Positions 50,248 to 54,830 of a DNA stretch of 64,000 nt are shown here, piece by piece. Position 1 is the first letter of the stretch. Each line of letters starts with the position of its first letter. This stretch comes from Eledone cirrhosa (Eukaryota): the NCBI GenBank assembly GCA_964016885.1, contig OZ024740.1:185132001-185196000 (forward strand), given 5' to 3'. The translations under genes and the position numbers were made by a program. The notes beneath the pieces are model-generated. The model made no database searches and had not been told where the DNA came from. It saw only the letters and a list, made by a program, of their open reading frames with translations.

Positions 50248-50671
50248 CTGTAAAACAAAATCTCTATATGATTTAAATTACACAAGTGTCCGATATTAGA
50301 AAGGCACCCATGTGCTGTGACCTGAATGCAGTCTGACCCACCCAGAGTGTAAGAAGTTAAGAGCTGAAATATTCGCTTAAAAGGAGTTTCTTCTCTGAAG
50401 ACCTTCTGTTGTCCTGAGAGTTTCTTACCTCTTATTGTTATTAGGGTGGTGGATTGGCAGTATTGGTAGAGTGTCAGATACCATGCCTTGCAGCATAGAG
50501 TTATGGCCATTTACATTCTGAGTTTAAATCTAGCCGAGGTTAGCTTTGCCTTTCATCCTTACAGGGCCAATAAAATGTAGCACCAATAATGCACTGGTGT
50601 CAAGTTATTCGACTCCCCTCCCCCTAAATTGCTGGCCTTGTGTCTAAATCAGAAACCATTATTACTATTAT

Positions 50672-51325
50672 GATTTGAAACTTCCTTTGAATTCTGCTTC
50701 TTTCCCAAATCATGCCGAGTGTCAACCTGGCACTTGAGGCAAAATTTGATAATACACCCGTTTTACAATCAATTTTGTGCAAATGCTGTTACAAGGACAA
50801 ACAACAGTAAATGTCCTTGCAAAGTGTTTGTCTTGATAATGCCCTTCTCAGGACATGGGCAGTGCCAGTCAGCACTATTTTCTGTTTCTATTGCAGATGG
50901 CTTTCCAGGTATCCAGTCCAAATATTTTTCAGTACCCTTTTTTATCATTCCAAGTGCAATGACTATCACTGCTATTGTACAGCATTTAACATGCCCCATT
51001 TTCTCAAATTCAATTGATAGATCTTTATAACTGAGCTTTTCAAACTCTTTCAAGGAAATGTTACAATCTGATGGAATGCTCATGTCAATTAGGAAACATG
51101 TTTTCTCCATATTGTCCTTCACAATTATATCAGGTCAGTTGGCCTTTTATTGTACTCTCAGTATTCACAGGGATATCCCAGAGGCATGTTACATTCTCAC
51201 CTCTTGTTACTGCATCTGGGTGATGGTTGTACCATTTTCTCTCCTTTTTCAGACCATGAAACCTGCACATTACCCAGTATAAGTATTGTGCCACTCTATC
51301 ATGCTTCATTTTATATTCCTGGGCA
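50672..51325 (-). mobile_element. R4/Dong-clade LINE 3' fragment (restriction-like endonuclease domain)
   Basis: QEYKMKHDRVAQYLYW...WYNHHP...LWDIPVNT..TIK/PDIIVKD...CFLIDMSIPSD.N...KE.EKLSYKDL...ALGMI; flanked by (TAA/ATT)n. Confidence 0.85.
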
Positions 51326-51543
51326 TTATTATTATAAGGGTGGTGGATTGGCAGTATCAGTAGAGGAACGGACGCCATACTTTGTAGTATAGAGTTACGC
51401 TCCTTTACGGTCTGAGTTCAAATCCCACCAAGGATACCTTTGCCTTTCATCCTTACGGGGGTGATAAAATAAGTACCAGTAATACACTGGGATAATTGCT
51501 GGCCTTGTGCCAAAAGTAGAAACAATTATTATTATTATTATTA

Positions 51544-53464
51544 CTTCAAGATTTCGGCTAAGGTGTTAGCAAAGAGGTTGGTGCTTGTCGTTGATGGTCT
51601 GGTGGGAGAGGCGCAAACATGCGCCATTCCAGACAGATCCATCCACGACAACCTCCACCTCATGCGATACATCGTAGAGAGGGTAGCTAAGGAACCTGGC
51701 ATGGGTGAGTCTTTGATCAATTTAGATCAGTCAAAAGCTTTCGATAGGGTTGACCATCGTTAACTGGCAGCAGTCCTAAAATGTAGTGAGAGTGAACGGT
51801 CACCTTTCAGAACCGTTCAACATCATACGCTCGATCTGCCAGGGATGTCTTCTCTCGTCCTTGTTGTACGTATTGACTCTTGAGCCATTACTGCACAAAC
51901 TGGAGATGTTGAGGGGGATGCCACGTGAACTAGGATGCAGAAGTACAGTGTCAGCTTATGCAGATGACATCACCGTAGTGGTGTCGAACACCAAACACAT
52001 CGAGGCAATCGGCACCACACTAAGGAAATACGAGGTAGTGACAGGAGCAATGATCAACCAGCAAAAATCAGTAGGCCTGCAACTCGGCACCTGGAGAGGC
52101 AGGTCCATGCCGCCCAACAGTGGCGTCGGGTTGAGGATGGACGGACTGGTTAAATTGCTAGTGGTCTGGTTCGGTCCAGACCTCCAGACGGACAAAAACT
52201 GGGAGGAGCTCACGGGCAAGGTGTTTTCTCTCACCCAGAAATGGGCCGAGAGGAAGCTATCCCTGAAAGGTCGAGTGGAGGTGGCGAAGGCGTACGTCGC
52301 ATCTGTCATCTACTACTGTCTGACCGTCGTGCCTTGTCCTAAGCCTCGCCTGACTGCACTGGAGTGTTTGCTCTTTTGCTTTTTGTGGAAGGGACGTGCT
52401 CTGATGATCAGGCGGTCCATCTGCTGTCAACACCCGCTATGTGCAGGGCTGGGCATTCCTGATGATGTGCAGACATAAGCTCAGGCTACGGCCTCTCCAC
52501 CTCTTCCTCGACGAAGACCGAGAGGAAGCGCTTGGAGACTAGAATGTCTTCAGGCACTTAAACCCCTTGACCAGGCGAGCAATACAATCGCTGGAAACTC
52601 CACCTTGGCTTTCTATAGAAGATTAGTGGAAGGAAAGAGCATTGACGTCCTTGCGGTGACTCTAGGCATGGATGAAAATCAACTAGCCAATCTCTTCGGG
52701 AGAACTTTCAGGCCGGGGCCCATGGACAACTTCCAGAAATCCCTGGCCTGGCAGTGCTACTGAGCAGCCTTGCCAGTTCGGGATAGACTCTACAGGCATG
52801 GAAGTGTCGTAAGCCGAGCCTGTCCGAGATGTGCACAGGGCGATGAAACCGTCTTGCACGCACTCGTCCAGTGTCCGAGCATTGTTTATTTGTGGATTTA
52901 TGCCGAACCTCTGCTGTCACATGTAAAAAGGATCCGGCTATCAGCTGAGTCCATCGTGAAGATTGCCCCGCCACCTTCCTTTAGCCGAGAAGGGCAGGCA
53001 GTTTTTATCTGCCTGGTGGCCATGGTAAAAGAGAATGTATGGTGGACACGTCTGAAAGGGTTGAAGACCCGTACTTTCCTCTTCGGTGATGCCCTCATTA
53101 ACTTTTTCAGGTTTAACCTTAAGAGGAAAATCAGGGTGGAGAGGGAAGTGCTGATCTCCAGCTAGTTTGTTGAAAGGTGGGTGAGAGAAGCAAGAATCGC
53201 CCGCGTGAATGGGTCTACCCTGAGCGTGTGCCTGTAGCATTGTAGGAGGAAAACTGGAAGAGGGCATTTGCCCTAGCAGGTCAGGGTAACCGTGTCTTTC
53301 CTTGTGGGCTTGTTCCACGAGCAACCTTCGGAGGTCTCCTCGCTTTTTTGGAATTTTTCATTGTTTCCTTTTGTCACACTCTGTTTTTGTTTTTTTATAT
53401 GTATTGTCCTGTGTTGTCCTTAATGTTATACTTTGTGTCAACCCTTGTGGTTAATAAAGAAAGC
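51544..53464 (+). mobile_element. Tx1 (L1-group) LINE, 5'-truncated and disrupted
   Basis: AKVLAKRL, QTCAIPDRSIHDNL, NLDQSKAFDRVDH, QGCLLS..LYVL.LEPL, AYADD, WAERKLSLKGR, CPRC...ETVLHALVQC; (ATT)n at both ends. Confidence 0.92.
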
Positions 53465-54049
53465 ATTATTATTATTATTTTTATTGGGCGGTGGATTGAC
53501 AGTATCAGTAAAAGATCGGACACCATGCTTTGCAATATAAAGATATGCCTCCTTACGATCTCAGTTCGAATCCTGCCGAGGTTAAATGTGCCTTTCATCC
53601 TTACGGGGTTGATAAAATAATAAAGTACCAGTCACGCACTGGGGTCGATTTAATTGACTTCCCCCTCCCTAAAATTGCTGGCCTTGTGCCTATATCAGAA
53701 ACCATTATTATCAGTATTATTGTTATTAATATTATTGGGCGGTGGATTGGCAATATCGGAAAAGGGTCGGATGCCATGCTTTGCAGCATAGAGTTACACC
53801 TCTTTACAGTCTGAGTTCAAATCCCGCCGAGGTTAAATTTGCCTTTCATCCTTACGGGGTAAATAAAATAAAGTACCAGTCACACACTGGGGTTAATTCA
53901 CTCGACCTTCCCCTCCCCCAAAATTGCTGGCCTTGTGCCTATATAAGAAACCATTTTGCCTTTCATCCTTACGGGGTCGATAAAATAAAGTAGCAGTAAT
54001 GCACTGGGTAATTGCTGGCCTTGTGCCAAAAAGTAGAAACAATTATTAT

Positions 54050-54830
54050 TATATGGGTGATTACTCAATGTTAAATTTAATGATACTAACAAAACTGCGG
54101 AAACGGATGAAAAAATCCTAATTTAGTAGGAAATCTAACCTATTTACGATGGTGGCAAGAAAAGGAGAAGTTGTTATGTTTGGGAAAGTGTAGGCCCTCA
54201 AAGATAAGGAAGTTGTTTTAGTCAAATCAGACCAGTATGATCTCGGATTGCAATGTTTAAAAAAATCATTGATAAGAATGACATGACAAATAAACCTAAA
54301 ATAGCCTGGATATTCAAAACTATATATGTTTTCATTATCTAACTAGAGAATGAGAATATATAGCACTCCAGCACTGGATAAATAAAAGGAAATAGAATAA
54401 TCATTGCTGAAAGCCAGTCAGCAGAGGGATTGTTTGTTATTTCTTTTTGTTTGTGTTAGTTATCTATTATTTTTTTTTAATCCACATCAACATACCAATA
54501 GTAATGCAATATTTCTTCGAAATATACAGCGGAACTTCAATTATTCACTTATTATTATTTTTATTTATTTTTAAGGATGAATAATTGGAGAAAGAAATAT
54601 AATGGCATACCATCTAAACTCTTTTTTACATTCTTGAAGAATGCATATAGACTTAAATGGAAACGATTGTGGTTTTGAGAAAGTAAAAGTTAATAATGTA
54701 TATATACATACGAGCTCATACAAATATATTTTATCAATAAGACGATTCATATTAAATAACATAGGAATCTTAAAAGTAGTGACAATTGTTAGAAACACAA
54801 TAAGTACAATGATACTATTGATTTTCTATT
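54050..54830 (-). pseudogene. Two disabled cadherin-like exons (about 54611-54830 and 54050-54295)
   Basis: LTIVTTFKIPMLFN...IYLYE...TLLTFTF...|gtatgc; attttag|GLFV...NIAIRDHTG/...LSLRAYTFPNITTSP. Confidence 0.4.

Follow-up and report, generated by a model that had tools for sequence, protein, structure and literature searches.

A common 3' end and an ATTAT target point to a probable partnership between an abundant SINE and L1/Tx1-like LINEs in Eledone cirrhosa

In the accessible text of the reports concerned, maize and Chlamydomonas are the sole sources of tail-sharing pairs of a short interspersed element (SINE) and an L1-clade long interspersed element (LINE) (PMC3472496, PMC3747384). The maize LINE1-1_ZM has a short 3' end in common with ZmSINE2/3, and the Chlamydomonas L1-1_CR with SINEX-3_CR. 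In both pairs the common end is a hairpin with a conserved loop and flank and a variable stem showing compensatory changes. A different link has been reported, in the available part of the source, for SINEU of crocodilians, which was tied to the target-preferring Tx1-Mar by its target and by concurrent ages, and whose tandem copies arose by sequential insertion (PMC4494074). In this study, we analyzed a 64-kb stretch of the 3.0-Gb genome of the animal Eledone cirrhosa (assembly GCA_964016885.1, contig OZ024740.1, positions 185,132,001 to 185,196,000, forward strand; hereafter the window, position 1 being its first letter). Here, a decayed L1/Tx1-like LINE and several SINE copies end in the same motif, CCTTGTG-N8-AGAAA, and lie nested in ATT repeats. 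An initial annotation had proposed that the SINE is mobilised by an (ATT)n-targeting Tx1 LINE and that each insertion regenerates a target, so that arrays grow by themselves. We found that the partnership appears to be real and is well supported at the level of a group of L1/Tx1-like LINE families. SINE pairing with L1-type LINEs is rarely described, and the Eledone pair was not found in the literature searched, including the available text of PMC3747384, PMC5786205, PMC11481361, PMC8967140, and PMC13282606; Repbase/Dfam and Ohshima and Okada 1994 were outside that search.

The motif, with the spacers originally annotated, was found at 53443-53462 in the LINE and at 51503-51522 in the SINE, and the long form of the SINE has it as well. 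It occurs exactly eight times in the window, at one LINE end and seven SINE ends (45998, 50636, 51503, 53682, and 53931, and on the minus strand 34180 and 32676), and a variant with a 9-nt instead of an 8-nt spacer lies at 54019. Followed by two nucleotides and (ATT)n, it is the terminal sequence of both SINE forms as well as of the LINE family. The best 30 genome matches to the LINE 3' untranslated region (3'UTR), window copy included, all ended in the motif or in a variant differing by 1-2 bases, with ATT repeats behind it in almost all. Because it is common to these 30 matches, the motif marks the genuine 3' terminus of the family and is no accident of the window copy. On the SINE side, it was carried by 136,524 exact short-form 3' ends genome-wide, and the prediction that the consensus ends share the motif was borne out by both sets. 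The last 22 nt of LINE ends matched the SINE majority at 14-15 positions, a level reached by only 2 and 0 of 2,754 random ATTAT-anchored sites, none of which contained the motif with up to one mismatch. The shared homology spans 22-28 nt and is group-wide rather than family-specific. The maize and Chlamydomonas pairs are plant or algal and poly(A)-tailed, with about 50-80 nt in common and target specificity undescribed in the accessible text (PMC3472496, PMC3747384), whereas the present pair is animal, (ATT)n-tailed, and directed to ATTAT.

The motif is kept across LINE families that are 46-82% identical in the C-terminus of open reading frame 2 (ORF2), including families with (TCTA)n tails. 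Using a search pattern that left the hairpin stem free, we counted 16,855 ends of the type found in the L1/Tx1-like group genome-wide, against 4 in a reversed control; the first 30 places found in this way comprised 20 ATT-type and 10 TCTA-like tails. Sister families with (TCTA)n tails and the same 3' hairpin (L145, L155, L156, L161, L164-L166, L174, L181, L194, L212, L213; L numbers are our own labels) have TCTA-rich junctions, which is a target switch within one LINE group. Since these families keep the motif, it is not derived from the target. A tree of ORF2 C-termini, with 14 rows from the genome and 4 from outside, placed the TCTA group apart from several ATT groups and the window copy with L065, adjoining the youngest families. 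When 48-nt local alignments to the SINE were scored, four sister families reached 18-22 and the youngest families 16/16, with the window family at 17/16. The window family is thus among the lowest scores and the motif is group-wide, so the partner link is to the LINE group and the window LINE cannot be named as the partner. The initial proposal of mobilisation by a Tx1 LINE would stand for the L1/Tx1-like group, given the shared end, site, and ages, with the window family as no more than one candidate. In the same way, a LINE that matches the SINE better was found within the group, in these four sister families, and none was found outside it, where the sampled clades scored at chance.

The block CCTTGTG represents a CUUGU loop closed by a C-G pair, and this pair was present in 21/21 aligned rows. 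The second pair is C-G in LINEs and G-C in SINEs, and the third is A-U or G-C. Stem covariation was 0.49 versus 0.215±0.05; this value was reached by 0/500 shuffles, and slid controls gave 0.19 or less. In 4/5 window ends the predicted hairpin lay within the minimum-free-energy fold. It is predicted at 51500-51512 (+) in the SINE, with the stem TGGC/GCCA and the loop CTTGT, and at 53440-53452 (+) in the LINE, with the stem AACC/GGTT and the same loop, followed by AATAAAGAAAGC. The shared blocks are best read as the loop and closing pair of a predicted hairpin with a covarying stem. The conserved loop and variable stem fit the model of a general stem and a specific loop that the available text gives for ZfL2-1/ZfL2-2; those elements belong to another clade (L2), and binding is experimental there and predicted here (PMC4176376). 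Three SINE bodies (L141, L149, L158) end in a LINE-type spacer with the crossover inside CCTTGTG. Either of two processes would explain them, namely template switching or the joining of a very short LINE insertion by microhomology. The family of L144 was rejected as a donor of the SINE tail; L144 itself, a divergent copy, was similar to the long SINE across 44 nt, and its family scored only 20/19.

Intact ORF2s of young LINE copies are about 1,140 amino acids (aa) long, with endonuclease, reverse transcriptase (RT), and zinc-binding domains. The L208 copy has an ORF1 of 697 aa and an ORF2 of 1139 aa with PF03372, PF00078, and PF13966, and the window copy, with RT and zf-RVT, groups with the two-ORF families in the tree. 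The nearest solved structure to the LINE ORF2 was the human L1 ORF2 protein (ORF2p). The homologue P0001, 79% identical to the L208 ORF2, matched human L1 ORF2p with E 1e-50 and R2 proteins with E 1e-24 or weaker; by this test the RT is nearer to L1 ORF2p than to R2-type RT. Among named sequences, the nearest relatives of this protein came from Argonauta hians (62% and 55% identity), in keeping with an octopod host. The available part of one report gives Tx1-clade ORF1 a CCHC knuckle rather than Transposase_22 (PMC5203782). Of five ORF1s scanned, two gave a zf-CCHC match below the cut-off (E 0.004 and 0.013) and none a Transposase_22 match. A preference for a target sequence, which is a Tx1-clade trait, is present in the group, although the element itself may carry some of the 5' ATT run. 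These results suggest that the group belongs to the L1/Tx1-like non-long-terminal-repeat retrotransposons, with Tx1 as the likely clade and an ORF1 CCHC signal that is weak at most. The ORF1s of L208, L216, and L207 also gave weak, below-threshold MBD matches (E 0.008-0.026). Octopus annotations list L1-Tx1, CR1, RTE, and Dong-R4 LINEs together with tRNA-Core/tRNA-Deu SINEs, partners being unassigned in the text available (PMC13282606, PMC8967140).

The SINE is 184-217 nt long and non-coding, and exists in a short (younger) and a long (older) form. In a sample of 60 evenly spaced 10-kb stretches (600 kb), 122 hits covered 16,513/600,000 bases (~2.8%). Among 5'-complete copies, an A-box-like motif was present in 34/37 and a B-box-like motif in 28/37, as judged by patterns that we presume to represent these boxes. 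By its length, A and B boxes, target-site duplications (TSDs), and copy number, the SINE fits the tRNA-type, RNA polymerase III (Pol III) class. Its head had no tRNA match in Rfam, and the tRNA sequences used for direct comparison covered 4 types. Octopus SINEs are mainly tRNA-Core and tRNA-Deu according to the part of the source available (PMC8967140). The crocodilian SINEU has small nuclear RNA heads and a Mariner target, and its pairing, in the available text, was drawn from target, age, and 5' heads and not from the 3' tail (PMC4494074); the Eledone pair combines a SINE with Pol III boxes and tail homology.

Insertion sites were determined for 62 SINE copies, taken at random, in which the end and both flanks could be recognised. 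A TSD was found in 30 of them, compared with 1.9 (maximum 5) in swapped flanks. These TSDs are 10-20 bp long with a mode of 18, start at Y|ATTAT, and lie mostly outside microsatellites. ATTAT within 27 nt of the 5' junction was observed in 38/62 SINE and 16/36 LINE copies against a background of 5.2%, and three ATT units before the 5' end in 11/62 and 13/36 against a background of 0.1%. A wider and noisier LINE set (n=70), which also held a few SINE ends fitting the pattern, gave 19/70 and 14/70. These results confirm the ATT enrichment expected from an (ATT)n target; the microsatellite itself did not hold up as the SINE target, which is better written as Y|ATTAT(W). In the window, ATTAT stands at or adjoining the TSD start of the three dispersed copies originally singled out. 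The short-form SINE at 30334-30520 (+) has the 11-bp TSD ATATTATGGCA with ATTAT adjoining its start, the copy at 32.6 kb has the 15-bp TSD ATTATGGCATACACT, and the short-form SINE at 34155-34347 (-) has a 14-bp TSD with one mismatch and ATTAT at its start.

LINE TSDs at or adjoining ATTAT were found at L229 (18 bp), L234 (17 bp), L292 (16 bp), and L331 (14 bp, one mismatch), the last being a full-length copy of the window LINE family. TCTA-tailed LINE copies sat at TCTA in 9/15 cases versus 2/70. Full-length young LINEs were preceded by ATT runs of 14-73 nt in 25/25 cases, and in 8/8 of a second set. Among window-family starts, 8/15 had a degenerate leader in common, and their 5' ATT runs may partly travel with the element. 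Microsatellite preference is known, from the available text, for the APE-type Tx1 families Kibi (TC)n and Koshi (TTC)n and for crocodilian (TTCC)n/(TTTC)n families (PMC4494074). The targets here differ, being ATT and, in sister families, TCTA, and the elements are likened by target preference and not by tree. The copies at L306-L320 have in common, at the 5' end of the window family, a degenerate ATT/GTT leader that has itself received SINE insertions. Opposite-strand SINE pairs were seen to meet at a palindromic ATTATT..AATAAT site (L124, 530-554 region, and L025).

Self-growing arrays by target regeneration were supported by the arrangement of copies. Among 92 random SINE hits, 23 had a same-strand and 2 an opposite-strand neighbor within 60 nt, where about 0.9 were expected. 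A SINE lay directly behind the tail in 14/37 LINE copies. SINEs sit in LINE tails and leaders, LINEs sit in SINE tails, and full-length LINEs (5.8-6 kb) of different families lie head to tail. The two window stacks described at the outset, at 50.4-54.05 kb and 45.86-46.42 kb, are real, the latter (45862-46422, +) consisting of one short-form SINE followed head to tail by two older relatives of 70-76% identity. The partnership would account for nested repeat arrays at ATT tracts. We considered co-insertion for SINEs that lie 8 nt before full-length LINEs and rejected it. The LINE's own leader was upstream of the SINE in 3/4 cases with 3' ends, so the SINE arrived later, and no outer TSD around a SINE and full-length LINE pair was seen.

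The ages of the two elements were also compared. Median divergence was 7.1% in the short SINE form (4.3% in one subgroup), 16.7% in the long form, and 3.2-11.7% in LINE families. The ranges, 4-17% for the SINE and 3-12% for the LINEs, overlap as the pairing predicts, and SINE and LINE activity is concurrent; the LINE samples are partly biased to young copies.

Taken together, it is quite probable that ORF2p of ATT-tailed L1/Tx1-like families copies the SINE by binding the predicted CUUGU hairpin, nicking the DNA at Y|ATTAT, using the AUU repeat for priming, and duplicating about 18 bp. Binding, nicking, and trans-mobilisation are modelled on the stringent L2 case as presented in the available text (PMC4176376), and the tail signature, site, SINE TSD, stacking, and ages are the observed part. 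ORF2p of these families would recognise the predicted hairpin in SINE RNA, and its endonuclease would nick the bottom strand opposite Y|ATTAT. The freed 3' end would then pair with the AUU repeat of the RNA and prime reverse transcription, and the top strand would be cut about 18 nt downstream. Each insertion leaves an ATT tail and a second ATTAT copy, and the regenerated ATTAT would draw the next insertion, by which arrays would grow. The SINE tail would have split long ago from an ancestral LINE tail; compensatory changes would since have altered its stem, with AGAAA, the loop, and the spacing retained. The SINE was probably served by a succession of ATT-tailed families, among which the window family is one candidate.

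Several observations weigh against this explanation. The shared stretch is short; among 1,200 random sites, 11 and 48 attained the 48-nt scores of the window LINE family, and the scores of (TCTA)n-tailed families were at least as high as those of ATT-tailed ones. The best match to the SINE tail was a 5'UTR hairpin of a sister family (26/29), which outscored every LINE 3' end and equalled or exceeded the null maxima of 26/23. The predicted stem is just 3-4 bp long with the outer pair broken in 12/21 rows, the folding z-scores of the SINE are unremarkable (0.84, 0.42, 0.56, and -1.48), and the covariation comes from about two independent changes among related sequences. Automated LINE TSD counts were not clearly above the null (10/64 versus 3.9, and 5/70 versus 2-8), probably because the majority of copies are embedded in pure ATT tracts or interrupted by nested inserts. 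The two elements also differ in strictness, with long ATT runs in front of young full-length LINEs and a lone ATTAT at most SINEs. Rival LINEs were sampled from about 1.4-2 Mb only, and a CR1-like LINE also ends in (ATT)n.

A broader reading of the proposed hairpin mechanism is tentative. An animal L1/Tx1 lineage may use stringent selection of CUUGU-loop RNA in all its families, with the tail repeat and the endonuclease setting the ATT or TCTA target, and the SINE, with several hundred thousand copies, would plug into this system. The protein might bind the 5'UTR hairpin too, perhaps to gate translation or to favour full-length copies, or the 5' copy might be the source of the SINE tail. This animal lineage has intact young LINEs and sister families that differ in target yet have a hairpin in common, which makes stringent versus relaxed recognition by an L1-type ORF2p directly testable. 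It also names a likely driver for a SINE that fills ~2.8% of the sampled DNA.

Relaxed recognition by the same LINE group was considered as an alternative. Here the AUU tail would be the sole requirement of ORF2p, in the manner of poly(A) for mammalian L1, and the motif would be a relic of tail acquisition, or would serve 3'-end formation, and would not be a site of protein binding. The weak SINE hairpin is consistent with this view, as is the fact that the motif does not separate ATT- from TCTA-tailed families; AATAAA is present in LINEs and lacking in SINEs, and a pre-tRNA chimera in the window shows that the enzyme is able to move onto other RNAs. However, the loop, the spacing, and AGAAA are held in SINE forms that are 4-17% diverged and across LINE families, with compensatory changes in the stem, and the RNA of the CR1-like LINE offers the same AUU tail yet its copies lack such TSDs. 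We therefore regard relaxed recognition as unlikely.

It is less likely still that the SINE was moved by another ATT-using LINE, whether CR1-like, R4/Dong-like, unsampled, or extinct, and that the likeness of the tails is convergence or an old capture. The CR1-like family, a label that we take from motifs presumed to be diagnostic, has an (ATT)n tail in its own orientation; 15 copies were found, 5 of them in the random 600 kb, and its RT was confirmed. R4/Dong-like elements crowd the same tracts. In bivalves, SINE partners are CR1, CR1-Zenon, L2, and Nimb, according to the available part of the report (PMC11481361). Nevertheless, the 3' ends of CR1-like (11/12), R4/Dong-like (10-15), and RTE-like (10-12) LINEs scored at chance against the SINE (null mean 12), and none of 12 CR1-like copies had a flanking repeat over 7 nt and hence a TSD. 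R4/Dong-like tails are (TAA)n, on the opposite strand, and RTE-like tails differ from (ATT)n as well. Moreover, among 292 SINE-type ends in a 1.44-Mb sample, the 44 without a SINE body upstream were all Tx1-like ends, SINE stubs, or Tx1-like 5'UTR, with no end of another LINE clade. By these comparisons, no other LINE clade sampled appears to match the SINE tail. As separate observations, the (ATT)n tail of CR1-like copies (L262, L105, L076, L089) is a landing site for the SINE and Tx1-like LINEs, and R4/Dong-like elements enter the same ATT/TAA tracts in the opposite orientation (29 tract-downstream sequences; window 50675-51325, minus strand; L205, L215).

The LINE group also carries a hairpin at its 5' end. 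In one young family, GGGC-CTTGT-GCCC precedes ORF1 by about 45 nt and has behind it an A-rich spacer and then ATT repeats. This 5'UTR hairpin has 1,217 exact copies, and examples at L207, L210, L223, and L249-L273 lie about 148 nt from the element start. Related hairpins were present in every family seen. Since other families have G/C hairpins with varying pyrimidine-rich loops at the same place (CTTTT, TTTGT, TTGA, CTTTA), it is an older feature of the group. The window-family 5'UTR was at one point taken for a relic of its own 3' end; this was refuted, and it is a decayed 5'UTR hairpin. The likeness to the SINE tail may reflect convergence on a bound loop, the capture of a SINE stub, or descent of the SINE tail from the 5'UTR. 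That the SINE tail descends from or mimics this hairpin, with ORF2p (or ORF1p) binding related hairpins at both RNA ends, is suggested by the top score, the copy number, the ATT repeats behind it, and its counterparts in other families, but is very improbable, because only the LINE 3' end has AGAAA in common with the SINE and lies at exactly the same distance (16 nt) from the tail, the loop varies among families so that one or two changes could yield the likeness, the motif formed no hairpin in one fold, and capture of a SINE stub by a master copy would give an identical picture.

The main window cluster is arranged as follows. A long-form SINE at 50443-50657 (+) ends in CCTTGTG-N8-AGAAA-CC, and its ATT-like tail runs up to 50674. 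Inside this tail lies a LINE 3' fragment at 50675-51325 (-) with TAA-like repeats at its own-strand end, which we take to be R4/Dong-like from what is presumably a C-terminal nuclease motif; a Pfam scan of the fragment matched no family. An (ATT)4 landing tract (51326-51337, +) precedes a short-form SINE at 51338-51524 (+), which has an A/B-box-like head and a ~30-nt internal deletion relative to the long form. Its (ATT)n tail (51525-51544, +) holds the 5' junction of the decayed, 5'-truncated L1/Tx1-like LINE of 1.9 kb at 51545-53464 (+; RT match 51783-52475, zf-RVT 52767-53162, 3'UTR ~53237-53464). The LINE (ATT)n tail (53465-53483, +) is followed by a long-form SINE set within it (53484-53703, +), an ATT-rich spacer (53704-53735), a second long-form SINE (53736-53952, +), and a 5'-truncated short-form SINE (53953-54041, +) with the 9-nt spacer variant and (ATT)3 thereafter, to ~54052. 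An Rfam scan of the LINE loci and this cluster found neither a ribozyme nor a tRNA family.

The copy near 32.6 kb is a chimera of pre-tRNA-Asp(GTC) and a SINE 3' half (32650-32850, -), with a gene-specific trailer, a T-run, and a single 15-bp TSD. Its trailer and T-run are those of tRNA-Asp genes at L295/L296, and the chimera is of the template-switch type. It resembles U6-LINE/SINE chimeras, in which a Pol III RNA with a U-rich end lies 5' of a truncated retroposon within one TSD (compare 32.65-32.85 kb), and differs in having pre-tRNA in place of U6; because such chimeras form with L2 and RTE too, it does not reveal the LINE clade (PMC4476161, available text). A tandem array of tRNA-Asp genes with a ~1.34-kb period lies at G000:C3:277.25-277.37 Mb.

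Other features were observed near LINE copies and in the window. At L065 (796-4050, +), an open frame of 1,085 aa lies 4 kb upstream of the LINE copy; it contains many C2H2-like motifs and is likely an exon of a host gene. At L069, a minisatellite with ~51-nt units from the 3' end of the LINE ORF2 was found ~1.25-1.8 kb beyond the LINE end. In the window, an RTE-like ORF of 724 aa at 37646-39820 (-) contains an RT with an inserted PHD-like finger and ends in (GAT)n.

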